From Clostridia bacterium (lineage in GTDB: Bacteria > Bacillota > Clostridia > Oscillospirales > CAG-272), in NCBI GenBank assembly GCA_017453365.1, contig JAFTKH010000006.1, positions 6,321 to 70,320 on the forward strand: a stretch of DNA of 64,000 nucleotides, written 5' to 3'. Shown here one piece after another: positions 40,334 to 60,252 of this stretch. Both the position numbers and the translations under genes were made by a program. Position 1 is the stretch's first letter, and each line of letters opens with the position of its first letter. Below the pieces are notes generated by a model, which worked only from the letters and a program-made list of their open reading frames with translations, had not been told where the DNA came from and ran no database searches.

Positions 40334-41074
40334 ATGGAAGATAATATACAAAATGAAGAGGTGAAGGAGAGCGCAAAACCCAAAATGCGCTTCGGTGAGC
40401 GAGTCGAGAATTTTTGGTATCACTACAAATGGCACTCAATAGTTGCTGTTTTTGTGATAATCGCGGTTACAGTATGCACTCTGCAAATGTGCTCGAAGGA
40501 GCGTTTCGACAATTATATCCTTTATGCGGGCGGATACGGAATATCCCGAAACGGAGCTGACGACGTTGCCGAATATTCCATAATTCTCTCGTCGATGAAG
40601 AAGGTTTCGCGCGATGTCGACGAAAACGGAGAGATAGTCACGTCGTTTCTCGACCTGTACGCACCGACGCCGAGCGAAATGGACGCGTCGGGCTCCGACC
40701 TGTACAATCTTACTATTGAGAACTTTGACAGGCTCAAATATGAGCTTATATCCGGCAGCGAATACTACGTATGCCTGCTCTCTGAATACAACTACGATGA
40801 GTACAAGGAGTGGGACGGCGTAAGAATATTCACACCCCTAGCCCCCTATACAAAAGAAGGTAACGAATACGAATATTACGACGAGTGTGCCATTTATCTT
40901 CATTCTACAGAATTTGGTGAGCTCGACGGGCTTAAAAACCTTCCCGACGACACTCTCATAGTCCTGCGCTCACTCTCGGCCGTCGCCTCTGCGTTCGGAA
41001 GAGATGAAAGCCAAAAGAACTTCGAGTACGGAGAGGAGCTCATGCGCTCCATTCTCGCATATAAAAAGCAATAA
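40334..41074 (+). CDS. Hypothetical N-terminally membrane-anchored protein (246 aa)
   Basis: Single TM helix (WHSIVAVFVIIAVTVCTL) and then a soluble domain. I recognise no motif. Confidence 0.6.
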   Translation: MEDNIQNEEVKESAKPKMRFGERVENFWYHYKWHSIVAVFVIIAVTVCTLQMCSKERFDNYILYAGGYGISRNGADDVAEYSIILSSMKKVSRDVDENGEIVTSFLDLYAPTPSEMDASGSDLYNLTIENFDRLKYELISGSEYYVCLLSEYNYDEYKEWDGVRIFTPLAPYTKEGNEYEYYDECAIYLHSTEFGELDGLKNLPDDTLIVLRSLSAVASAFGRDESQKNFEYGEELMRSILAYKKQ

Positions 41075-44327: not shown

Positions 44328-44476
44328 AGAGAAAACTCCTTTTTCGGAAATGCTGACGGTTTTTAAACCGTTACAGCCGTATATATTCTAACACACAGAC
44401 CCATAAAAATCAATACGAATAAATAACAAAAAGATGAAAACACTAACCAAAAAGAAGTTTTTTGGGAGTTGAAAAC

Positions 44477-44941
44477 ATGGATATATACTCGGAAAAGGGT
44501 AAAAAAAGACTTATAAAACGGTACACTCCGAAAACAAAGCTTTTTAAAACCTCGATTTTAGCTTTTATTTTCGGCGGGACTATTTGCGCGCTCGGCGAAG
44601 CTCTGCGTATTCTCTTCGTAAACCTCGGTCTCGAGGACAAGCTCGCCGTTACACTCGTAAGCTTAAGCTTCGTCGCCATAGCCTCGGTGCTTACGGTTAT
44701 AGGTCTGTTTGACAGAATTGCACGGCACGCGGGAGCGGGAACGCTCGTCCCGATAACAGGCTTTTCAAACTCTGTGACAAGCGAGGCTATGGACTCGGCA
44801 AGCGAGGGCTACGTGCTCGGCGTCGGCTCAAAAATATTCACGGTAGCAGGACCGGTTCTCCTTTACGGAACGGCGGCGGGAGTAGTCTACGGTATTGTTT
44901 ATTTCATAGCGAAGCTTATAGAAGGGGGTGCGGTCAGATGA
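44477..44941 (+). CDS. spoVAC: Stage V sporulation protein AC
   Basis: ...FIFGGTICALGEAL..., and gene order AC-AD-AE. ATG at 44477 preceded by GGGAG. Confidence 0.9.
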   Translation: MDIYSEKGKKRLIKRYTPKTKLFKTSILAFIFGGTICALGEALRILFVNLGLEDKLAVTLVSLSFVAIASVLTVIGLFDRIARHAGAGTLVPITGFSNSVTSEAMDSASEGYVLGVGSKIFTVAGPVLLYGTAAGVVYGIVYFIAKLIEGGAVR

Positions 44942-45993
44942 GAGTAAGAAGGCTGTCACGCCCGCCGAGATTTGTATCGTGGGCATCGGTCGGCGGCTAC
45001 GAGGAGTCCCGCGGACCTCTTGGGGAGAAGCTGGATTTTGTAGACAAGACAGATACCTTCGGGCAAAAGACCTGGGAGCTCGCCGAGGGAGAAATGGGCA
45101 GATGTGCTCTCAATATGGCGCTGACGAAGGCAGGTCTCTCTCACGACAGACTCGAGCTTCTTGTCGCGGGTGACCTTCAAAATCAGTGTGTGGCAAGCTC
45201 TCTTGGCGCGGGCAGCTTCGGTATTCCATTTCTCGGTGTATACGGTGCGTGCTCTACCTGCACGGAGTCACTCCTCATACTCTCCGTTATGTTAAGCGAG
45301 GGCTGCGCAACGCTCGGAGCGGCGGCAACGACGAGTCACAACTCTGCGGCAGAGCGGCAATTCAGAACACCTGTCGAGTACGGTGCTCAAAGAGCCCCCT
45401 CGGCACAGTGGACGGCGACGGCAGGCGGTGCTTTTATTCTGTCATCCGACTACGGTATTATCTCCTGCGAGCGAAAAGGCTCGGTCGAGCTCTCCGAGGT
45501 CGCCGTCGGAAAAATAATCGACGGAGCTACCGCCGATGGCTCAAATATGGGTGGGGCTATGGCCTTCGCCGCAGCAGATACAATTCTCTCGTATTTCGAA
45601 GAAACGGGAAACGACCCCGCTATGTTTGACCATATCGTTACGGGAGACCTCGGACGCGTCGGCTCGGATATCCTGCGTCACATTCTCGGAGAGAAGCTAC
45701 CTAAGGCTGTGTCAAGACATACCGACTGCGGTCTTCTTCTTTACGACTCGGAAATACAGGACGTTCACTCCGGAGCATCGGGGTGCGGAACTTCAGCATC
45801 CGTTCTAGCCGCGCACTTTCTCCCCGCCCTTGAGCGCGGCGACCTCTCCGACATTCTCTTTCTTTCAACAGGAGCACTTATGTCACCGTCAAGCGTATTG
45901 CAGGGCAGAAACATTTCGGCTGTAGCACCGCTTATAAGGCTCACGCATAGGGATAACGAAAAAACGGAAAGAGAGGAACCTTCAAATGAATGA
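44938..45993 (+). CDS. spoVAD: Stage V sporulation protein AD
   Basis: Thiolase-like fold motifs (SVGGYEESRGPLG, GACST). ATGA overlap with spoVAC. Confidence 0.9.
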   Translation: MRVRRLSRPPRFVSWASVGGYEESRGPLGEKLDFVDKTDTFGQKTWELAEGEMGRCALNMALTKAGLSHDRLELLVAGDLQNQCVASSLGAGSFGIPFLGVYGACSTCTESLLILSVMLSEGCATLGAAATTSHNSAAERQFRTPVEYGAQRAPSAQWTATAGGAFILSSDYGIISCERKGSVELSEVAVGKIIDGATADGSNMGGAMAFAAADTILSYFEETGNDPAMFDHIVTGDLGRVGSDILRHILGEKLPKAVSRHTDCGLLLYDSEIQDVHSGASGCGTSASVLAAHFLPALERGDLSDILFLSTGALMSPSSVLQGRNISAVAPLIRLTHRDNEKTEREEPSNE

Positions 45994-46357
45994 TATAACC
46001 GCAATTCTTCTCGCCGCACTCGGCGGTGGTATACTCTGCGTAATAGCGCAGCTTCTGCTCGACCTGACGAGTCTCACCCCTGCGCGTATTCTCGTCGGCT
46101 ACGTAGTGCTCGGGGTATTTCTCTATGCCGTCGGAATATACGACCCCCTCTTTGAAATTTTCGGTGAGGGTGTGTCTCTTCCGCTCATCGGTTTCGGCGC
46201 CGTAATAGGAAGAGGTGTCAGAGAAGCAATAATCGAAAGTGGGGCTATAGGTATAGTCACAGGCGGACTCACCGCTTCTGCCGCGGGGATAACGGTTGCT
46301 CTGCTTTTCGGCCTTTTAGCCTCTCTTATCACCAAAGGAAAGCCAAAAAGACTGTAA
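45986..46357 (+). CDS. spoVAEB: Stage V sporulation protein AE (AEB-type)
   Basis: 123-aa polytopic membrane protein that overlaps the spoVAD end. Confidence 0.85.
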   Translation: MNDITAILLAALGGGILCVIAQLLLDLTSLTPARILVGYVVLGVFLYAVGIYDPLFEIFGEGVSLPLIGFGAVIGRGVREAIIESGAIGIVTGGLTASAAGITVALLFGLLASLITKGKPKRL

Positions 46358-46422: not shown

Positions 46423-46451
46423 TTGATTTTTAAATATTTTTATGGTATACT
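46423..46451 (+). promoter_or_regulatory. Candidate dnaA promoter (extended -10)
   Basis: TTGATT (46423-46428), 17-nt spacer ending in TGg, TATACT (46446-46451). Confidence 0.55.
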
Positions 46452-46539: not shown

Positions 46540-48063
46540 ATGCTTGATTTTTCGGACATAAACTTTTCAGACCTCGAATATTCGGATTTTGACCTACCCG
46601 GTATTAACGAGCTTATAATGCCTGAACTGAAGTCGAGAGTAAACACACTCTCCTCTATATTCGAATTTTGGTTCGGGGGGCTGCGCCTTATATACCTCTC
46701 GGATAAAAAAGCTATATTCCAAACTCCGACAAATTTAAGAAAGAACATTCTGAACAACAAGCATATTCCCTTGATACGCGAGGTTCTCGAGGAAATTACC
46801 GCCTGTCAGGTGGAGGTGGTTCTCTGTTCTCTCCCCGAGCTTCGCGCTATGGCGGCTGAGGACCCGAGAATAAACAAGCTTATATATATAGACGACGAGG
46901 CTGTTAAAGAAGAGGCACAAAAGGAGCGCCGCATTACCGACTACATAAATTCTTCTCCCGAGAAAGAGATAGAGAAGCCCGTGGAAAAGGAGAAAATCGA
47001 CAGTGACGAGGATACCGATACAAAGGACTCGCCCACGGTTAAAAAATCGACGCTCGAGGAATATACCTTCGATAATTTCGTCGAGGGCTCGTCGAACAAA
47101 TTTGCCCGAGCCGCCTGCTATGCGGTTGCAAGAGAGCCAAACTCCTACAACCCCCTTTTCATATACGGTCATTCGGGACTCGGAAAAACCCATCTGCTCT
47201 ATGCGGTCATAAACTATATGAGGAAAAATCATCCGCACCTTAAGATAGTATATAAGAGGTGCGAGACCTTCCTCGATGAGCTTATAAAGGCAATAAAAAG
47301 CGGAAGCACCGCAACGTTTAAGGAAAAATATCGCTCGGCTGACGTTCTGCTCATCGACGACGTTCAATTTCTCGCGGGAAAGGAGCAGACGCAGGAGGAG
47401 TTCTTCCATACCTTCTCTGTTCTCTACGAGAGTGACAGGCAGATAATACTCACCTCGGACAGGCCCCCGAAGGAAATAAAGCCTCTTGAGGACAGACTTC
47501 GAACCAGATTTGAGGGCGGACTCCTCGCAGACGTTCAGCCCCCGTCCTTCGAGCTGCGCCTCGCAATAATAAAGAAAAAAGCCGACACTATGGGGCTCTC
47601 TATCTCCAACGAGATAATCGAGTATATGGCGGAAAGGCTTCAGAACAATATAAGGCAAATAGAAGGAGTTCTCAAGCGTATCCACGCTATATATTCTCTC
47701 ACGAGTGCCGAGGTCACACGTGAGAAGGTTGATGAGGTTATCTCTATAATCGATCCCGGAAACATTCCCACAGACACACTGATAGAGCGTATACTTTTCG
47801 CAGTCGGCCGTTCCTTCGGCGTATCCCCGGAGGATATGAAGTCGAAGAAGCGCACGGATAACATTGCCTCGGCTCGTCATGCCGCAATATACATAATTAA
47901 GCAGCTAACGGAGCTTACGCTTAAGGAGATAGGAGCGGTCTTTGACCGAGACCACGCGACGGTCATCTCCTCAATTGAGAAAGCGGAGAAAAATATGAAG
48001 ACCGTCAACAACTATGAGGCGGAAATAGAACGCCTTATGAAGGAAATTCGCGGCGGAGCGTAA
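46540..48063 (+). CDS. dnaA: Chromosomal replication initiator protein DnaA
   Basis: AAA+ Walker A GHSGLGKTHLL, Walker B LLIDDVQFL, and domain IV ...FDRDHATVISS. 507 aa with a long acidic linker. The start could alternatively be M27 (46618). Confidence 0.95.
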   Translation: MLDFSDINFSDLEYSDFDLPGINELIMPELKSRVNTLSSIFEFWFGGLRLIYLSDKKAIFQTPTNLRKNILNNKHIPLIREVLEEITACQVEVVLCSLPELRAMAAEDPRINKLIYIDDEAVKEEAQKERRITDYINSSPEKEIEKPVEKEKIDSDEDTDTKDSPTVKKSTLEEYTFDNFVEGSSNKFARAACYAVAREPNSYNPLFIYGHSGLGKTHLLYAVINYMRKNHPHLKIVYKRCETFLDELIKAIKSGSTATFKEKYRSADVLLIDDVQFLAGKEQTQEEFFHTFSVLYESDRQIILTSDRPPKEIKPLEDRLRTRFEGGLLADVQPPSFELRLAIIKKKADTMGLSISNEIIEYMAERLQNNIRQIEGVLKRIHAIYSLTSAEVTREKVDEVISIIDPGNIPTDTLIERILFAVGRSFGVSPEDMKSKKRTDNIASARHAAIYIIKQLTELTLKEIGAVFDRDHATVISSIEKAEKNMKTVNNYEAEIERLMKEIRGGA

Positions 48064-48339
48064 AAATTTTCAACATTTTAATGTTTGAAAGTTGAAAACT
48101 CCGTGTTCGTAAGATGTTCGTAAGATGTTGAAAAACCTGTTGAAAGCTTCCAACATTTTCTCCACACCCGTGCTATCAAGAAATTGTTGAAACTTTTTGG
48201 GAGAAATTCCTCTCCCGGCCTTGAAATTTTCGGTTTTCAACATTTTCAACACTACTAATACAACAACGACAACCGATAAATACATTTATTAATTCATCTC
48301 CCTCCGGGAGAAAAAGTGACAAGGAGAGTTTGACAAGTT
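48064..48339. other. oriC: Probable oriC (dnaA-dnaN spacer): 9-mer repeat array, triplet tract and an A+T-rich stretch
   Basis: Exact TTTTCAACA at 48067, 48234 and 48243, and its complement at 48126. One-mismatch copies at 48090, 48138 and 48185. One near-canonical DnaA box, TTCTCCACA, at 48158-48166. NAN triplets at 48250-48273, then an AT-rich stretch. Confidence 0.7.
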
Positions 48340-49500
48340 ATGAAATTCACAGTTTCGAAATCAGAGCTTATGCGTGTACTTACTCCCGCTATGGGAAGCG
48401 TATCCAATAAAAATACCATAACCGCTATCGAGGGAGTGCTTATCGAAACTCTCGATGAAGGTAAGGTAAGAATATCTACCTATGATATGAATAAGGGATT
48501 CAGAGCTACCGTTACCCCGACGTCTATTGAGCGTGACGGAAGGTTTATAATAAATGCGCAAAGGCTTTATCAAACCGTGCGCGTGCTTCCTGACGAGGAT
48601 ATTACCTTTAACATCGACGACCGTCTTTCCTGTGAAATATCCGCCGGTAAGGCTTCCTTCTCTATGTTTGCTCTGCACGGCGAGGATTTTCCAAATCTCC
48701 CCGACCTAGTTACCGAGCGCGGCTTCACCGTTTCTGCGGAAATTCTCCGCAAGATGATATCGAAGGTCGTTCACTCTATAGCAGAGGCTGACACAAGACC
48801 CATGCTCTGCGGTGCCTTTATGAAGGTTACAAGCGGACTTCTCGAGGTTGTGTCCTGTGACAGCTACCGACTTTCAAAGTGCCGTATGGCCTGCGATATC
48901 GGAGCACTGTCCTCTGACGGCGAGCTCGAATATTCCTTTATTGTTCCGGGACACGCACTCGGCGAGCTTATGAAGATACTCGCTGACGGAGACGACGAGA
49001 TGTGTCAGTTCTACCTTTCGAGAAAGCATGCTATTATAAATAAAGGAAACGTTGTATTCTTCACAAGGCTTATTGACAGCGATTACATTGACTATAACAG
49101 AATTATACCTCGCGATAACGATATACACGTAACCGTAGACAGGGAGAGGCTTCTCTCTGGGCTTGAGCGTGCTAATATTATTGCCGAGGAAAAAATACAG
49201 GGAAGCGGCAGAAGCTACGTAAAGCTTTCTGTTGAAAGACATTACCTCGACCTTACCTCGACGTCGGTCAACGGTGCTGTTACCGACGAGATGGACTGTA
49301 TTCACGACGGTGCAGATATAGAAATAGGCTTCAACTGCCGATATCTTATCGATGCGGTTAAGGTGGCAGAGGGCGAGGAAATACTCATTAAGCTCAAGAG
49401 CGCAAATCAGGCTATAACAATAGAGCCGAAGGAGCGCGACGAGAAATTCGATTATTTCTATATGATACTCCCCGTGCGAATGAATGAGTCGGCAAGCTGA
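48340..49500 (+). CDS. dnaN: DNA polymerase III beta sliding clamp
   Basis: MKFTVSKSEL...; three-domain size (386 aa); position after dnaA; RBS AAGGAGAG. Confidence 0.95.
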   Translation: MKFTVSKSELMRVLTPAMGSVSNKNTITAIEGVLIETLDEGKVRISTYDMNKGFRATVTPTSIERDGRFIINAQRLYQTVRVLPDEDITFNIDDRLSCEISAGKASFSMFALHGEDFPNLPDLVTERGFTVSAEILRKMISKVVHSIAEADTRPMLCGAFMKVTSGLLEVVSCDSYRLSKCRMACDIGALSSDGELEYSFIVPGHALGELMKILADGDDEMCQFYLSRKHAIINKGNVVFFTRLIDSDYIDYNRIIPRDNDIHVTVDRERLLSGLERANIIAEEKIQGSGRSYVKLSVERHYLDLTSTSVNGAVTDEMDCIHDGADIEIGFNCRYLIDAVKVAEGEEILIKLKSANQAITIEPKERDEKFDYFYMILPVRMNESAS

Positions 49501-49506
49501 CCTCTT

Positions 49507-50613
49507 ATGAAAATAAGAAAATTTCGCGCCGAGGGCTTCCGCAACATAGATTTATGTGAGATAGATTTTTCTGACGGTACAAATCTCATAGTGGGCGGAA
49601 ACGCAGAGGGGAAGACCAACGTTATTGAGGGAATATACCTCTTTTCGCGCGGCAGGTCGTTTCGTACGGCAGATGACCGAGAGCTTATAGGCTTCGGTCA
49701 CGACGGCTTCCGTATCTCGGTAGAGTATGAGGACGAGGGAGGCACATCCACACTAGAATACGCTCTTTACGGAAAAGCGCGTAGGAGAATGAAGAATGGG
49801 TACAAGCTTTCCTCTGCTGCAGAGATGCTCGGCAACTTTCGCTCCGTGCTCTTTTTTCCCGACGACTTAAGGCTTGTTAAGGGGAATCCAGAGGAGAGGC
49901 GCTCGTTTTTGAACGTTGCTCTTTCACAAACCTCACCGCTTTACGTTTCAGACTATTCAAGATTTAAGACTGCGCTTGAAAACAGAAATGCAATTTTAAA
50001 AAATGCCGCTCGCGGACTCTATTTTGATGAAGGAGAGCTTATCGCGTGGAGCGACGTTATGGCTGAATATTCGGCGAATATATATATTGAAAGAAAAAAA
50101 TACACAGAAGAGCTCTCGCGCTTCGCAAAATCTCATCTTCTCGAGCTTTCGGGCGGGGCGGAAGAATTAGAGCTTGCTTATAAATCCGATATCGAAAGCG
50201 GAACTGCGGACAGGTCCGAGGCTGTAGCCGAATATAAAGAGGTGTACAGACGGAGTCTTGAGCGCGAGCGTGCGGCTGGGACTTCGCTCTTCGGACCGCA
50301 ACGCGATGATATCACGGTTCTTCTCTCGGGACGCGAGGCGAGGAGCTTCGCATCGCAGGGGCAGCAGAGGTCGATAGTCCTTGGTATGAAGCTCGGAGAG
50401 GGAGAGATAATTCACGAAAGGTTTGGGGAGTACCCGGTATTTCTCTTCGACGACGTTCTCTCGGAGCTCGATGACGAGCGTCGCACCTACCTTGCCGGCA
50501 AGACGGACGATATGCAGACCGTTATAACTTCCTGCGAGGGCGGAGAGAGATATCTCAAGAATATAAACGTTATAAGTGCCAAGGGAGGAACGTATGTATC
50601 TTCACATAGGTAA
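49507..50613 (+). CDS. recF: DNA replication/repair protein RecF
   Basis: FRN...Walker A GGNAEGKTN, SMC-like signature SQGQQRS, Walker B LFDDVLSELD. Confidence 0.93.
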   Translation: MKIRKFRAEGFRNIDLCEIDFSDGTNLIVGGNAEGKTNVIEGIYLFSRGRSFRTADDRELIGFGHDGFRISVEYEDEGGTSTLEYALYGKARRRMKNGYKLSSAAEMLGNFRSVLFFPDDLRLVKGNPEERRSFLNVALSQTSPLYVSDYSRFKTALENRNAILKNAARGLYFDEGELIAWSDVMAEYSANIYIERKKYTEELSRFAKSHLLELSGGAEELELAYKSDIESGTADRSEAVAEYKEVYRRSLERERAAGTSLFGPQRDDITVLLSGREARSFASQGQQRSIVLGMKLGEGEIIHERFGEYPVFLFDDVLSELDDERRTYLAGKTDDMQTVITSCEGGERYLKNINVISAKGGTYVSSHR

Positions 50614-50857
50614 CGGAAAGAGCGTTAGAAAAAAAGATATAATAGGTATATTCGACCTTGATACCGCCACGGTTTCGAAAATAACCCGAGGCTTTATCGG
50701 AAAAATGCAGAAGGACGGACGGCTGGAATATTACGATACTGACCTTCCGCGAGCCTTCGTTCTTATAGGCGGCCGCCGCGGCTCGCGCTTAAGGCTTTCC
50801 AGAATATCTCCGCAGGGACTTAAGCAAAGAGCGGACGGAGGAGCTATCGAAGAATGA
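50594..50857 (+). CDS. remB: DUF370 / RemB-like (YaaB) protein
   Basis: MYLHIGNGKSVRKKDIIGIFDLD is a typical DUF370 start. Conserved recF-yaaB-gyrB position. RBS AAGGGAGG. Confidence 0.8.
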   Translation: MYLHIGNGKSVRKKDIIGIFDLDTATVSKITRGFIGKMQKDGRLEYYDTDLPRAFVLIGGRRGSRLRLSRISPQGLKQRADGGAIEE

Positions 50858-52834: not shown

Positions 52835-55402
52835 ATGGAACATAATTACAAAAGCTCGGATATTGAATTTCCGAGTCAGAGAATTGAATACAGGGATATG
52901 GAGCGTGAGGTCAGAACCTCGTTTATAGAGTATTCTATGAGCGTTATTACCTCGCGTGCACTTCCCGACGTAAGAGACGGACTTAAGCCCGGACAGAGAA
53001 GAATTCTCTACGCTATGTACGAGGATAATCTTACCCACGACAAGCCATTCAGAAAATCGGCAACGACGGTAGGTAACGTGCTCGGTAGATATCACCCGCA
53101 CGGTGACAGCGCGGTATATCAGTCGATGGTAAGAATGGCGCAGGATTTCTCGCTTCGTTACACTCTTGTCGAGGGCCACGGAAACTTTGGTAATGTAGAC
53201 GGTGACGGTGCTGCCGCATACCGTTATACAGAGGCGAGAATGAGTAAAATCGCGTCGAATATGATGACGGATATCGAGAAGCACGTCGTTCCTATGACGA
53301 GAAACTTCGATAACACGCGCGACGAGCCGACGGTGCTCCCTTCACGTTTTCCTAATCTTCTTGTTAACGGCTCGGTCGGTATTGCTGTCGGTATGGCGAC
53401 GAATATTCCCCCACATAACCTCACCGAGGTTATAGACGGAACAATTTACAGAATGGAAAACCCCGAATGCTCTATAGACGAGCTTATGGAGTTTATAAAG
53501 GGCCCTGATTTTCCCACTGCGGCGATAATCTATGGTTCACGCGGCATAAGAGAGGCTTATGAAACGGGACGCGGTCGTGTCTACGTAAGAGCGAGAGCTA
53601 CGATAGAGGACGAGCACAGGCGCATTATCTTCACTGAAATTCCCTATATGGTAAACAAGGCTATGCTTATCGAGAGTATAGCAAACCTCTACAAGGAAAA
53701 GAAGGTTGAGGGTATTACAGGTCTTCGCGACGAGTCGGGACGCGGCGGTATGAGAATAGTCGTAGAGTATCGGCGCGATGCAAACGCAGAGGTCATACTC
53801 AATCAGCTTTACAAGTATACGCAGCTTCAGGACACCTGCTCTGTCAATATGCTGGTTATCGACGGCGGAGAGCCCAAAACTCTTTCCCTGCCCGCAATAC
53901 TCGACAAGTACATAGAGTTCCAGAAGAGTGTTATAACTAACAGAGTTAAGTTCGACCTTGATAAGGCACTTCGAGAGATGCATATTCTCGAGGGCTATAA
54001 GACGGCGATAGACAATATCGACGAGGTTATAAGCATTATCAAGACGAGTGAATCTATCCCCAACGCAAAGGAAAGGCTTATTGGACGCTACGAGCTCTCC
54101 GACGCACAGGCACAGGCTATTGTCGAGATGACTCTCGGTAAGCTCTCCGGTCTTGAAAGGCAGAAGGTAGAGGATAGAATTATCAAGCTTACAGGACTTG
54201 TCACGGAGTACAGAGCAATACTCGCCGACGAGGGTAAGGTAATAGAGATAATCAAAAACGAGCTTATCGAAATAAAGGACAAGTATGGTGACAAAAGACG
54301 CACGGAGCTTGTTGAGGCTACAGAGGAGATAGACCTCGAGGACCTTATCGAGCGTCACACCTGCGTAATTACGGTCAGCCATACGGGATACATCAAGCGC
54401 CAGAGAGCTGACGTTTACTCCGCGCAGAACAGAGGTGGTAAGGGTATTATCGGTATGACGACGAAGGAGGATGATTTCGTCGAGGACGTTATCGTATCGA
54501 ACAGCCACTCACATCTCATGTTCTTCACGAACAAGGGACGAGTTTACGCAAAGAAGGCGTATAGGATACCGGAGGCCTCGAGAACGGCGAAGGGGACTAA
54601 CCTCGTTAATATCATCGAGCTTACCGAGGGAGAGTACGTTACGGCGATAATTCCGATAACCGAATTTGTCGAGGGCGAGTACCTCACTATGGTAACGAAG
54701 CGCGGTGTTGCGAAGAGAACTCTTCTCGAGGACTTTGCTTATCAGAGACGCGGCGGAAAGATTGCCATAAATCTTGACCCCGAGGACGAGCTTATCTTCG
54801 TTCGTCACACGAAGGGTAACGAGAGCTTGATTATCGCTACACGAGACGGTATGGCAGTAAGATTTGACGAGAACAACGTGCGTGCTATGGGCCGTGCTGC
54901 AAGAGGTGTTCGCGGTATCACTCTTTCGGGCGACGATTACGTCGTCGGTGTCGCTGTTGTTGACGATGATAAATCCCTGCTCACGGTTACAGAGGGCGGT
55001 ATGGGTAAGAGAACCTCCTTCCTTGATTTCAGAGAGATGAAGCACAGGGGCGGTAAGGGTGTTACCTGTCATAAGATAACCGAAAAGAGCGGCAAGCTTG
55101 CTTCTATTATAACGGTAAGTGAAGACGATGATATTATGCTCATCACCAATGAGGGCACTATTATCCGTATGTCGGTATCGGGCATAAACGAATATTCGAG
55201 AACTGCTGGCGGTGTTATTCTTATGAGACTGTCCGAGGGCGGATATATCAACAACGTTGCAAGGCTTGAGAAGACCGAGGATATAGAGCGCGAGAGCCAA
55301 GAGGTTGAGCGCGAGATTGAGGCTATGCCGAAGGAAGAGGTAAGCCTTACCGATAAGGATAAAGTGGCCGATGTCTCTGCCGATACGGAGAGCGAGGAAT
55401 GA
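52835..55402 (+). CDS. gyrA: DNA gyrase subunit A
   Basis: [19 protein letters not shown], an AAYRYTE-type active-site Tyr context ([11 protein letters not shown]), a beta-pinwheel C-terminal domain and an acidic tail. Confidence 0.97.
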
Positions 55403-56070
55403 GAGCATTTCGTAAAGCAATAGCTCTTTTACTTGTTCTTATAACTCTCGGAGCTTGTGTACTTATCTCTTGTGACAGGAGCTACGATGAAGAAGAGGTT
55501 CTCGCGAGCGCTAAAGAGCTTCTTTTTCAGGCCGAGATATTGAACAAGGTATATTACGGCGGCGGAATAAATTATATCTCCACGGGGTATAAAGACGGAA
55601 ATTACTACGAGGCTGACCCCATACATCTTGCTGTTTTGGGCTTTACTACGATAGATGAGCTTAAAAATATGACGCTCGACACGTTTACTCTAGGATATTC
55701 CGAGGAAATATTCTCAACAAAGCTCTCTATGATAGAGGATGAAACGGGAATACAAGAAATGACGAGATATTACCAAAAATACGACGGCAATGAGCTTTCG
55801 GAGCCTGTATGTATTATGGTATATTCAATGGCGAAAAGACAGCTTACGGGTGATATAGAATACGATTATTCCACGCTCCGCATAACGGGAGTTAAAAGAC
55901 AAACGGTGTACGTTACGGTTACGGCAACGGTGAAAAATTCCGAGGGAAAGCAGATGACGGTAGATATCGAGCTTAACCTTATCGAGGAGGACAACGGTTG
56001 GCGCATTGACAATCCCTGTTATGCAAACTACAGCGAGCTTTCTGACAAATACGGAGAGCTTGGCGGTTAA
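55399..56070 (+). CDS. Putative lipoprotein (223 aa)
   Basis: Signal peptide with lipobox ([10 protein letters not shown] / VLISC). Its ATG overlaps the gyrA stop (ATGA). Confidence 0.6.
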
Positions 56071-57130: not shown

Positions 57131-58822
57131 ATGGAAAAAAAACAAAGAAAAGGAAGGCAGCCGCAAGGAAAGCTCCGCGTGATGTCGCTGGGCGGACTCG
57201 AGGAAATCGGTAAGAATATGACCGTTCTTGAGTGGGGCGACGATATTATAGTCATCGATTGCGGCATGGGCTTCCCCGATGAGGATATGCCGGGCGTTGA
57301 CCTCGTTATACCCGATATATCCTATCTTATTCAAAATGCGCATAAGATACGCGGAATACTTATAACTCACGGACACGAGGACCACATAGGTGCCGTTCCG
57401 TACGTACTTAAGCAGATAAACGTTCCTATTTATGGAACGAAGCTTTCTCTTGGAATTATCGAGGGAAAGCTGGATGAGCATCCGCTAGACGAGGAGCCGG
57501 AGCTTTACACGGTTGAGGCGGGAGACGTAGTAAATCTCGGTGTTTTTAAGGCTGAATTTATCCATGTAAATCACTCTATTGCTGATGCGTGCGCGATTGC
57601 GGTTAGAACTCCTGTCGGCATAGTTTACCACTCGGGAGATTTTAAGCTCGACGTATCGCCGATAGACGGAAATATGATGGACCTAGTAAGAATAGGAGAG
57701 CTTGGGCGCGAGGGCGTTACCCTTTTGCTTTGCGAGTCTACAAATGCGGAGCGCCCCGGCTTTACACCCTCGGAGCGTACTGTCGGCTCATCTCTTGAGC
57801 GAATTTTTGAAAAATACTGTGACAAAAGACTGATTATAGCAACCTTTTCCTCAAATGTGCACAGAGTTCAGCAGATAATAAACGCAAGTGCAGCTCATAA
57901 AAGAAAGGTTGCCGTTCTCGGCCGCAGTATGGTAAACGTAATAGGTGCAGCGGCAGAGCTCGGATACATGGAGCTCCCCGACGGTGTACTTATCGACATA
58001 TCAGAGATACGCAAATATAAGCCTGAGGAGCTGACGCTCATTACAACGGGAAGTCAGGGAGAGCCTATGTCGGCACTTTACAGAATAGCCTTCTCGGAGC
58101 ATGATAAGGTGAAGCTTTCTGCCTCGGATGTCGTAGTTCTCTCATCCAGCGCTATTCCCGGAAACGAGAAATTCGTCGGAAAGATAGTAAATGCCGTTGT
58201 AAGAAGCGGCGTCAAGGTAGTTAACGACTCCGTTGAGGACGTTCACGTTTCAGGACATGCGTGCAGTGAGGAAATAAAGCTCCTTATGGCACTTCTTAAG
58301 CCTAAATATCTTATGCCTATACACGGAGAGTACAGACATCTGTACGCCAACAAGGATATCGGAGAGTATATGGGAATACCGTCGGAGAATATCTTCATAA
58401 GCGAGATAGGTAAGGTGCTGGAGGTAGACAGACGCGGAGCTCGCTTTGCGGGCGAGGTCCCTTCGGGAAAGGTGCTCGTCGACGGCTCGGGCGTTGGTGA
58501 TATAGGCAGTGTCGTGCTTCGCGACAGGCGCCATCTTGCAGAGGACGGTCTTGTCGTGGTCGTTGCGACGGTTGACACCGATGCGGGGCTTGTTGTATCC
58601 GGACCCGATATAGTGTCTCGCGGCTTCGTCTACGTAAAGGAGAGCGAGGAGCTTATGCGCGAGGTTAAGAAAATTGCCGAGAGCTCTATTGAAAGGCTGC
58701 TTAAAAAGCGCGTAGGTGACTGGGCTCATATTAAGGGTGTTATAAGAGATGACCTTGCTAAATTTATTTTTGCAAAGACGAAGAGAAAGCCTATGATACT
58801 TCCGGTCATTATGGACTTATGA
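57131..58822 (+). CDS. rnj: Ribonuclease J
   Basis: Beta-lactamase fold HxHxDH (THGHEDHIG), a beta-CASP domain and a C-terminal domain. 563 aa. Confidence 0.93.
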   Translation: MEKKQRKGRQPQGKLRVMSLGGLEEIGKNMTVLEWGDDIIVIDCGMGFPDEDMPGVDLVIPDISYLIQNAHKIRGILITHGHEDHIGAVPYVLKQINVPIYGTKLSLGIIEGKLDEHPLDEEPELYTVEAGDVVNLGVFKAEFIHVNHSIADACAIAVRTPVGIVYHSGDFKLDVSPIDGNMMDLVRIGELGREGVTLLLCESTNAERPGFTPSERTVGSSLERIFEKYCDKRLIIATFSSNVHRVQQIINASAAHKRKVAVLGRSMVNVIGAAAELGYMELPDGVLIDISEIRKYKPEELTLITTGSQGEPMSALYRIAFSEHDKVKLSASDVVVLSSSAIPGNEKFVGKIVNAVVRSGVKVVNDSVEDVHVSGHACSEEIKLLMALLKPKYLMPIHGEYRHLYANKDIGEYMGIPSENIFISEIGKVLEVDRRGARFAGEVPSGKVLVDGSGVGDIGSVVLRDRRHLAEDGLVVVVATVDTDAGLVVSGPDIVSRGFVYVKESEELMREVKKIAESSIERLLKKRVGDWAHIKGVIRDDLAKFIFAKTKRKPMILPVIMDL

Positions 58823-59577
58823 TAAGGCTTGTTATATGTAAAAACGGGGACGGGGGAGCTGCCGTCCCCCCTGATTTTCCCTTTCTTCGCGAGCTTGTGT
58901 CCAAAACCGGTAGCAATCGACTGAAAAGTGAGAGAATAAGTGCTTATCTCGCTCTTAAATATTCTTATGAAAAGCTTTTTTTACATACCTTTCCCACTAT
59001 AACAAAAGATGAAAAAGAAAGGCCTTGCTTCACTCGTCCAAATGAGTTTGTAAGCGATTTCAGCATTTCCCACACCTCTGGAATATCAGTGATAGCGTTT
59101 CTCTCGGGAGAGGGACGGGTGGGGGTTGATGCGGAGCTCGAGTATTCTTCTGAAAAACTCGACGGTATATCGAACAAATTTTTTAAAAAAGCAAACTTTG
59201 ATTTACAGAGAAGAGAACTTTGCGTGGAAATAATGATAGCAGAGCTTTATAATGACTCTGTAAAATTTATTGACACGCTCCCCATTGTCACAAACAAAAT
59301 TGATTCTACGATACTTTTTTCTTCATCGGATACGGAGCTTTCTTATGTAAGACTTGGAGACTTTGATTTTTTCGATAGATGGACTTCTCTTGAAGCTCTT
59401 CTTAAGGCAGATGGTGGTGGCTTTTCTTCACTTTCATTAATAAACGAGCTTCTTCCTGAGTCTTTGAGCCTTGGGCTTCGTATGAGTGTTGGTAATGACG
59501 TTTACCGAATATCGCTCTGCCATCTGAAGCAGGCTTTGACAGATAAAAACGGCGCCGCTGATTGTGATAAATATTGA
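58819..59577 (+). CDS. 4'-phosphopantetheinyl transferase superfamily protein (Sfp-like, divergent)
   Basis: FSISHTSG, GVDAE and WTSLEALLKADGGG motifs. Its ATG overlaps the rnj stop (ATGA). Confidence 0.7.
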   Translation: MIRLVICKNGDGGAAVPPDFPFLRELVSKTGSNRLKSERISAYLALKYSYEKLFLHTFPTITKDEKERPCFTRPNEFVSDFSISHTSGISVIAFLSGEGRVGVDAELEYSSEKLDGISNKFFKKANFDLQRRELCVEIMIAELYNDSVKFIDTLPIVTNKIDSTILFSSSDTELSYVRLGDFDFFDRWTSLEALLKADGGGFSSLSLINELLPESLSLGLRMSVGNDVYRISLCHLKQALTDKNGAADCDKY

Positions 59578-59688
59578 TATATTGTAAATGAAAAATAAAC
59601 TTTCAACAAAGTGAGTTGAAAATACTTGCAGTTTGTGTTAAAATCATTCCGTAGGTGGCTTTTGCCCCTTTTATTTATTGGAGGCTTT

Positions 59689-60252
59689 ATGCTTGAGAAC
59701 GTATGGAATAATATTATTCTTTTAAATCTTCGCGATTTCGAGAACATTAGTGTTGATTTTTACATAAATATTTTCCTTTTCTTTCTAGCTCTTGCCATAG
59801 TTGCTTGTGCGTTTGTATTTGAGTACTCGCGCGGGGTTATGCACGTCGCGGTAAAACAGCTTCTCCGTCATGGTGCTTTAGGCGAAGGGGAGGCAAAAAC
59901 TCTGTCGAAGCTTGGACTCGCCGATAACAAAATGGTAAAACTTTTTCTCTCTCGCGATACCCGTTTATCAAAGCTTTTATCCCGTGTCGGTGCCCCGGAT
60001 GTAAAGTATGAGGATTTTGTCAAGATGAAAAGAGCGGAGCAAAAGGAGCTTTTTAGAGTTGATTTTTCTAAAGACCGTTTTTATATTTCTGATGAAAATT
60101 CAGATCAGGCAAACCGCGTTTTTTCATCGTATGCTTTTTCCCTGCCGCGTTTCTTACTCTTTGCTCTTCTCGTTTTTCTTCTTTGGGGAGCAATCGCGGC
60201 CTTCAGCTATGAGCTGATTTCTTATATTGATTCTGTGCTTTTGAATAAATAA
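59689..60252 (+). CDS. Hypothetical membrane protein
   Basis: ATG at 59689 preceded by GGAGG. One N-terminal and one C-terminal TM segment flank a charged domain. Confidence 0.5.
   Translation: MLENVWNNIILLNLRDFENISVDFYINIFLFFLALAIVACAFVFEYSRGVMHVAVKQLLRHGALGEGEAKTLSKLGLADNKMVKLFLSRDTRLSKLLSRVGAPDVKYEDFVKMKRAEQKELFRVDFSKDRFYISDENSDQANRVFSSYAFSLPRFLLFALLVFLLWGAIAAFSYELISYIDSVLLNK

Follow-up and report, generated by a model that had tools for sequence, protein, structure and literature searches.

The accepted consensus of the DnaA box, TTWTNCACA, allows either A or T at position 3. Boxes with A at position 6 are also known from several bacteria. In the mollicutes M. pulmonis, S. citri, M. capricolum and also M. 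genitalium the consensus is TT(A/T)TC(C/A)ACA, and both TTTTCAACA and TTATCAACA are named among the boxes (PMC3322544, Table 2); in Thermoanaerobacter tengcongensis, a member of the class Clostridia, it is TTATCNACA, with a degenerate position 6, and an oligonucleotide with the TGTTGATAA (TTATCAACA) box was among the gel-shift probes (PMC1888806); in Lawsonia, 'ttttcaaca' has been used as the DnaA-box motif (PMC2671203). Here we analyse positions 48064-48339 of a 64-kb stretch of DNA (referred to as the window) from an uncultured spore-forming member of the Clostridia, a spacer between dnaA and dnaN in which TTTTCAACA recurs. The spacer is very probably the chromosomal origin of replication (oriC), organised in a single part, with TTTTCAACA as the DnaA box of the lineage; in view of the mollicute, T. 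tengcongensis and Lawsonia precedents, the motif is a known box variant, and the locus is otherwise an ordinary oriC whose boxes carry A at position 6.

The layout can be compared with that of the dnaA-dnaN part of the Bacillus subtilis oriC, which likewise lies between dnaA and dnaN and contains a tandem head-to-tail pair of boxes, CTA-initial repeats (3'-GAT-5') and an AT-rich stretch. The window differs from it in that the boxes are TTTTCAACA rather than of the TTATCCACA type, there is no second cluster upstream of dnaA, the first conserved trinucleotide repeat (DnaA-trio) follows after 0-3 nt, and the later trios are of the CAA type. The T. tengcongensis origin, in contrast, is located upstream of dnaA and contains 12 boxes, with A and not T at position 3. 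The consensus of the clade to which the window belongs is letter-for-letter identical to that of the mollicutes, although these are a different lineage of wall-less, non-sporulating bacteria with AT-rich genomes. A limited literature search found no description of the dominance of TTTTCAACA in an uncultured sporulating clade, of a single-part origin with spoVA genes upstream, or of the substitutions in DnaA domain IV that are set out below.

The repeat cluster between dnaA and dnaN

Exact copies of TTTTCAACA are located at 48067-48075, 48234-48242 and 48243-48251 on the plus strand and at 48126-48134 on the minus strand. Four of the five copies in the window thus fall inside 48064-48255, and the remaining 63.7 kb holds one; 0.59 copies are expected in the window as a whole, and none of 100 shuffles reached five. 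Copies with one mismatch start at 48090, 48138 and 48185, all on the minus strand. Of the core TGTTGAA/TTCAACA the spacer has six copies, and the window in total has 12 (5.8 expected). The 9-mer TTCTCCACA at 48158-48166 is the only one in the spacer within one mismatch of TTATCCACA. TGTTCGTAAGA is present as two tandem copies (48104-48114 and 48115-48125), directly joined to TGTTGAAAA at 48126.

TTTTCAACA itself differs from TTATCCACA at two positions, which is inside the tolerance of both Ori-Finder and the search rule for the basal unwinding system. With the relaxed pattern TTWTCMACA and at most one mismatch, the spacer contains eight matches in 300 bp, compared with a maximum of four per 300 bp elsewhere in the window; the eight lie within 190 bp, where at least three boxes at a mean spacing below 100 bp are expected of an oriC. 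Exact matches to TTWTCMACA, the mollicute-type box, number seven in the window, four of them in the spacer. The same relaxed scan found no box cluster upstream of dnaA in the window, and none is present in the twelve clade relatives checked, so that the origin appears to be single-part. The elements of the putative origin and the two flanking genes are as follows.

46540-48063, plus strand: dnaA, 507 aa (Pfam PF00308 and PF08299; alignment to PDB 1J1V and 8BTG)
48067-48075, plus strand: first putative DnaA box, TTTTCAACA, 4 nt past the dnaA stop codon (motif scan and orthologous slots)
48082-48098, minus strand: two overlapping degenerate boxes, TGTTTGAAA and AGTTGAAAA, equivalent to the conserved ATGTTGAAATGTTGAAAA pair of the clade (motif scan, alignment)
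48104-48125, minus strand: two tandem TGTTCGTAAGA units, read as two degenerate boxes (TTACGAACA) in slots 2 and 3 of a five-box array (sequence, relatives)
48126-48146, minus strand: putative boxes TTTTCAACA (48126-48134) and CTTTCAACA (48138-48146) (motif scan, orthologous slots)
48147-48166, plus strand: weak box CTTCCAACA (48147-48155) and near-canonical box TTCTCCACA (48158-48166) (sequence, alignment)
48185-48193, minus strand: putative box GTTTCAACA (motif scan; slot conserved in relatives)
48234-48251, plus strand: head-to-tail TTTTCAACA TTTTCAACA, counterpart of B. subtilis DnaA-box#6/#7 and putative platform of the basal unwinding system (motif scan, orthologous slots)
48252-48272, minus strand: DnaA-trio region, top strand CTA CTA ATA CAA CAA CGA CAA (sequence, rule of PMC8287927)
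48276-48296, no strand: AT-rich stretch ATAAATACATTTATTAATTCA, 19/21 A/T, candidate DNA-unwinding element (sequence, position conserved)
48297-48311, no strand: GC-rich hairpin TCTCCC-TCC-GGGAGA, before the dnaN ribosome-binding site (RNAfold -8.4 kcal/mol, z -2.8)
48340-49500, plus strand: dnaN (Pfam PF00712, PF02767 and PF02768)

An earlier reading of the window from its sequence only had reported the four exact and three one-mismatch copies, the six cores, the single near-canonical box, the missing cluster upstream of dnaA and the TGTTCGTAAGA duplication running into TGTTGAAAA; all of its coordinates were rechecked and are correct. Its description of the motif as non-canonical was overstated, since A or T at position 3 falls inside TTWTNCACA and boxes with A at position 6 have been published.

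That reading had also proposed looking for the motif in related dnaA-dnaN spacers. These were gathered by DnaA protein similarity and not by DNA motif, five from a genome scan, 15 from metagenomes searched with domain IV and 10 from contigs of selected homologues, giving 29 non-redundant spacers; 66 other Bacillota dnaA-dnaN spacers, mostly from Bacilli, served as the comparison group. The closest species representatives in the genome collection are metagenome-assembled genomes (MAGs) of uncultured Eubacteriales/Clostridia, with DnaA identities of 60-80%, and the other matches are mostly Bacilli. Among the 9-mers of the 29 clade spacers TTTTCAACA ranks first (45 copies, 24/29 spacers), and it stays at the top when the window and its two 87%-identical relatives are left out. 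The next distinct box spellings are TTTTCCACA (22 copies) and TTATCAACA (14 copies), the ranks in between being overlapping shifts of TTTTCAACA. The first rank in the 66 other Bacillota spacers is held by TTATCCACA (91 copies, 60/66 spacers); from the two rankings, TTTTCAACA appears to fill the role of the canonical box in this clade.

Eleven spacers are collinear in a MAFFT alignment, and every TTTTCAACA of the window pairs with a box in the relatives, often TTTTCCACA, TTATCCACA or TTATCAACA. The slot of the first box (48067) holds TTTTCCACA in L003, L081, L100 and L101 and TTATCAACA in L084, L096 and L098; the slots of the 48126 and 48138 boxes hold TGTGGAAAA, TGTGGATAA or AGTGGAAAA in L083, L084, L003 and L002; and the 48185 slot holds TGTTGAAAA, TGTTGATAA or TGTGGATAA. 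At the tandem pair, L003 has TTATCCACA TTTTCCACA, and L083, L084, L100 and L103 have TTTTCCACA TTATCAACA. Positions 1, 2, 4, 7, 8 and 9 of the tandem-pair boxes are invariant in the 11 aligned spacers, and position 6 alternates between A and C. The top 9-mer of the 29 spacers, the canonical boxes in orthologous slots and the tandem pair preceding the DnaA-trios all support the divergent DnaA box that the sequence-only reading had proposed for the lineage.

Five elements on the same strand start at 48090, 48104, 48115, 48126 and 48138, at spacings of 14, 11, 11 and 12 bp. The same five slots are present in the 87%-identical L096 and L097, at offsets of 26-27, 40-41, 51-52, 62-63 and 74-75, and slot 2 of L097 is a good box, TGTTGATAA. 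The TGTTCGTAAGA duplication is therefore best read as two degenerate boxes in a conserved array. The array resembles the low-affinity arrays of the Escherichia coli oriC (PMC6727663) in that two of its five same-strand 9-mers are degenerate, although the box spelling is different.

In its usage of position 6, the clade has 61 CAACA and 27 CCACA boxes, compared with 13 and 157 in the other Bacillota (Fisher test, 4e-25). A mere AT bias was considered as the source of the CAACA enrichment and rejected, since the Bacilli spacers are equally AT-rich and keep CCACA. On the evidence of these alignments and counts, the DnaA-box consensus of the clade is TT(A/T)TC(A/C)ACA, with TTTTCAACA as its principal box.

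Putative unwinding region and position of the probable origin

Basal unwinding systems often carry a second tandem box. The rule used in searching for them asks for a box with at most two mismatches, a spacer of 0-16 bp and at least three trios (NAN, bottom strand) (PMC8287927). In agreement with this rule, the boxes of the window at 48234-48242 and 48243-48251 are followed by CTA CTA ATA, the upstream box and the first trio being 9 bp apart. The spacer ends in the same way in every relative, with two head-to-tail boxes, a few G/C bases, a CTA-initial trinucleotide repeat and an AT-rich run; in L003 this slot reads TTATCCACA TTTTCCACA GTACAACAAC. The AT-rich stretch at 48276-48296 lies directly past the trios, its position is conserved in the relatives, and it is a candidate for the AT-rich unwinding element of an oriC.

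On the bottom strand the trios of the window read 3'-GAT GAT TAT GTT GTT GCT GTT-5', of which the first three fit (NAN)>=3; trios 4-7 are CAA or CGA (bottom GTT or GCT). Where the window has 48252-48275, the relatives read CTA CAA CNA CAA CAA TTA CAA (CC), and in many of them the first trio alone is canonical. For comparison, the trios of Clostridioides difficile read CACCTACTACTATTACTACTA (PMC7561715). In B. subtilis DnaA, Asn187 reads the central A of the trios (PMC10721633), and the window DnaA, unlike that protein, has D, G and K in the single-stranded DNA pocket at the trio-reading residues N187, N196 and R202 (N187D, N196G and R202K in the 8BTG alignment). From the second tandem box to the first conserved CTA there are 3 nt (CTA, GCA or CCA) in the window and its closest relatives and 4-5 GC-rich nt (CCCC, GCCC) in more distant clade members, suggesting that the box-to-trio register has moved by one or two bases in the sub-branch of the window.

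By analogy with the B. subtilis basal unwinding system, DnaA domain IV would bind about a dozen boxes of the TT(A/T)TC(A/C)ACA type. A DnaA oligomer would be nucleated on the five-box same-strand array, which has 11-14 bp spacing and includes both degenerate TGTTCGTAAGA units; from the abutting pair at 48234-48251, DnaA-ATP would be guided onto the neighbouring DnaA-trios, and the AT-rich stretch at about 48276-48296 would open for helicase loading.

The location of the origin within the window is supported by a switch in replication-strand bias. For each gene, the third-position G-C and T-A skews were modelled by a constant and a leading/lagging term, with the switch point scanned along the window. 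The best switch lies at 47.5-50 kb, with a residual variance of about 0.5 of the null, compared with 0.85-0.90 without a switch and 0.87-0.97 for a switch at 29 kb; the 64-kb window thus contains the bias switch expected at an oriC. The minimum of a plain cumulative GC skew, near 29 kb, was rejected as a candidate, being confounded by gene orientation.

The gene order, from Pfam matches, is spoVAC-spoVAD-spoVAE, dnaA, the spacer and dnaN-recF-gyrB-gyrA, with mnmG upstream, which places the spacer next to dnaA and dnaN as expected of an origin neighbourhood. The synteny is shared by all 10 relatives looked up (L096-L105), which read spoVAD-spoVAE-dnaA-dnaN(-recF). Directly upstream of dnaA in the window are thus spoVAC-spoVAD-spoVAE (44462-46357) and not rpmH-rnpA, and the presence of spoVA genes indicates that the lineage sporulates. 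A dnaA promoter, TTGATT-17-TATACT, is located at 46423-46451, without obvious boxes for autoregulation.

No promoter or terminator was found inside the spacer by a sigma-70 and terminator scan. The hairpin at 48297-48311 is not an intrinsic terminator, as it has no T-run after it on either strand; it may form a stem-loop at the 5' end of the dnaN mRNA or set a limit to unwinding. Per-sequence folding places hairpins at this position before dnaN in L081, L082, L094, L096, L097, L099, L104, L105 and others, with quite different stem sequences and often a TTCG loop. RNAalifold returned no structure for these downstream hairpins, from hand-cut segments that were out of register. In the whole 64 kb no Rfam family reached its gathering score (no tRNA, rRNA, riboswitch or leader), a somewhat uncommon finding so close to the origin in a Bacillota genome. 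The open reading frames (ORFs) at 40334-41074, 50576-50857, 55399-56070 and 58819-60252 have no Pfam match; such ORFs near the replication genes include the small one that separates recF from gyrB, the place of remB/yaaB in Bacillus.

DNA-recognition residues of DnaA

The DnaA of the window matches Bac_DnaA (3e-66) and Bac_DnaA_C (2e-22) in Pfam, and is 100% identical to a protein of a 'Clostridia bacterium' MAG; it shares at least 62% identity with 120 or more protein clusters, nearly all metagenomic. Its domain IV reads TLKEIGAVFDRDHATVISS. In the alignment to 1J1V and 8BTG, E. coli R399, D433 and H434 are kept, and four residues are substituted (P423 to K, T435 to A, H439 to S and A440 to S). 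Recognition of 5'-TnCACA-3' falls to the helix that begins at 434, and a T435M substitution abolishes box binding (PMC5742627); base-specific contacts are made by residues 423, 432-435 and 438-439 (PMC5043019). These residue-to-base contacts are drawn from reviews, with no residue assigned to box position 6. The substitutions are a property of the clade: in the 120 closest clusters residue 423 is K (once Q), residue 435 is S or A (once T) and residue 439 is S, F, A or Y, compared with P...RDH(T/S)TV.HA in the domain IV of the 66 other Bacillota.

A comparable situation is found in Epsilonproteobacteria, whose boxes have the core TTCAC and whose domain IV is altered at 435, 438 and 439 (PMC5043019). 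In both cases substitutions at 435 and 439 accompany a lineage-specific box, although the change in the epsilonproteobacterial box is a T at position 5 and residue 439 is K.

The base at position 6 varies with residue 435. Among boxes with A or C at this position, A is found in 7/14 for T435, 60/84 for S435 and 35/38 for A435 (Fisher test against the A435 class: 0.002 for T435, 0.01 for S435). A crude neighbour-joining tree places A435 in at least four separate branches, each with at least 80% A at position 6. Position 6 is G in 8 of 37 boxes of the D433N/S lineages, compared with 5 of 135 for D433 (p = 0.001). The D433N/S relatives L105 (2917-3205), L001 (3893-4277) and L088-L090 carry the position-6 G boxes TTCTCGACA, TTTCGACAG and TGTCGAAAA, and their DnaA-box slots are consequently literal boxes of the sporulation regulator Spo0A (0A boxes).

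The covariation between residues and boxes is suggestive only; T435A/S, H439S and P423K may cause the acceptance of, or a preference for, A at position 6. A more specific proposal is that the recognition surface and the box have co-evolved, so that with P423K and H439S fixed, a path from T435 through S to A would have moved position 6 from C towards A, and D433N/S would give G and hence boxes that are literal 0A boxes; we regard this as quite possible, if short of probable.

Two other features of the clade's DnaA proteins were seen. H434Y (RDYSTV) is present in about 40% of the 120 closest clusters, including P0009, P0028, P0030, P0045 and P0089, and the spacers of these proteins are almost all of the CAACA type (18 A and 2 C). 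The window DnaA (507 aa) and its relatives of at least about 80% identity (504-506 aa, with one 544-aa call) are about 35-45 residues longer than the other DnaA proteins of the clade (452-482 aa); the difference is made up by acidic, lysine-rich linker between domains I and III (window 46540-47050, residues 1-170).

Alternative readings and implications

Several points weigh against the assignment of the spacer as oriC with TTTTCAACA as the DnaA box, or against its link to domain IV. The skew change point has a resolution of about +/-2 genes in the 64-kb window, with the global minimum outside the view, and GC3 alone places the best break just past dnaN. Past the first three trios, the CAA-type repeats are without the central A on the bottom strand. 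The scan pattern used for the box counts presupposes TTWT-C-N-ACA. The tree behind the separate A435 branches is built from 100 residues without support values, and the association between residues and boxes is based on small counts that ignore kinship and include the near-duplicate pair L081/L102. Finally, the Clostridia L006 and L038, which keep P423 and H439, also use some CAACA boxes, and the residue changes are thus not strictly required for such boxes.

Tandem 0A boxes are spaced about 10 bp apart, close to the approximately 11-bp same-strand repeats of the window, and the sequence-only reading had proposed a dense occupancy of the origin by Spo0A. On this proposal the TGTTGAA(AA) repeats would be 0A boxes, or dual sites for DnaA and Spo0A, and Spo0A~P would coat the origin and block initiation at the onset of sporulation. 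Sporulation genes are present, spoVAC/AD/AE being directly upstream of dnaA, and a single base separates TGTTGAAAA from the 0A box TGTCGAAAA; in the oriC of B. subtilis, also a spore former, Spo0A~P binds 0A boxes that overlap DnaA boxes (Castilla-Llorente 2006, Boonstra 2013, reviewed in PMC5295017), and in L001, L002, L088 and L105 some DnaA-box slots hold a literal TGTCGAA or TTTCGACA. However, Spo0A contacts G2, C4 and G5 of the box, and C4A costs the C. difficile protein about 10-fold in affinity (PMC3485338). It is precisely the contacted C4 that separates the motif from TGTCGAAAA: all six cores of the spacer have T there, and the window copies, unlike the B. subtilis sites, are thus without the CG step. 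Exact TGTCGAA, with G2, C4 and G5, is found neither in the spacer nor upstream of dnaA, and its total of 12 in the window compares with 9.96 by chance. Moreover the accepted DnaA box TTTTCCACA (complement TGTGGAAAA) likewise departs from the 0A box by a single base, at the same position, so that the resemblance is generic to DnaA boxes; the closeness of the two spellings also accounts for the known overlap in B. subtilis. The orthologous slots of relatives contain canonical DnaA boxes, which would not be recognised by Spo0A, the 9-bp abutting pair before the trios is an architecture specific to DnaA, and the spore-forming Bacilli retain CCACA boxes (157 versus 13). TGTTCGTAAGA was also considered as a 0A box, and none was found in any register on either strand. 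The spo0A gene is not among the window ORFs scanned with Pfam, a scan that covered about half of some 50 ORFs. A Spo0A reading of the window repeats is not supported, and we consider it improbable.

It is also possible, if on balance doubtful, that the boxes are deliberately weak and the motif tunes origin firing with the recognition code unchanged. The E. coli oriC has arrays of sub-consensus sites 2 bp apart that require cooperative filling (PMC6727663), and the same-strand array of the window shows this 2-bp spacing. Members of the clade mix CCACA and CAACA; about 12 of 30 relatives have CCACA in the upstream box of the tandem pair, the box that matters more in B. subtilis (PMC8287927), and the CAACA boxes of L006 and L038 favour this explanation as well. 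In the window and its 87%-identical relatives, however, every strong slot is CAACA, both tandem boxes included, which would leave no high-affinity anchor. The recognition helix is changed throughout the clade at three base-contacting positions, the use of A at position 6 tracks residue 435, and mollicute origins show an identical consensus (PMC3322544). The tandem units of TGTTCGTAAGA and the pair of abutting 9-mers resemble local duplications, and the repeats could in principle be a recent, functionless local expansion, or sites of another origin-binding protein. Such an explanation is highly improbable, given that slots, strands and spacing of the boxes are conserved down to about 50% identity in DnaA domain IV while the intervening sequence diverges, that loss of the motif is not seen in close relatives, and that TTTTCAACA is a one-position variant of the DnaA box.

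The assignment of the spacer as a DnaA-dependent oriC provides a usable origin annotation for a widespread group of uncultured spore-forming Clostridia, namely an oriC of a single part that lies between dnaA and dnaN and uses the box TT(A/T)TC(A/C)ACA, and origin finders that demand a CACA core would under-count such boxes. The general picture of origin function is unchanged, and for this locus the more exciting Spo0A reading is removed. The covariation between residues and boxes is the sole part of some wider interest, the comparison of residues 433 and 435 with box position 6 being a cheap and testable hypothesis on how DnaA reads this position. If the co-evolution is true, this large uncultured clade of gut and rumen Clostridia would offer a natural series from which the DnaA recognition code could be read, and its G-type members would have direct competition between DnaA and Spo0A at every box.

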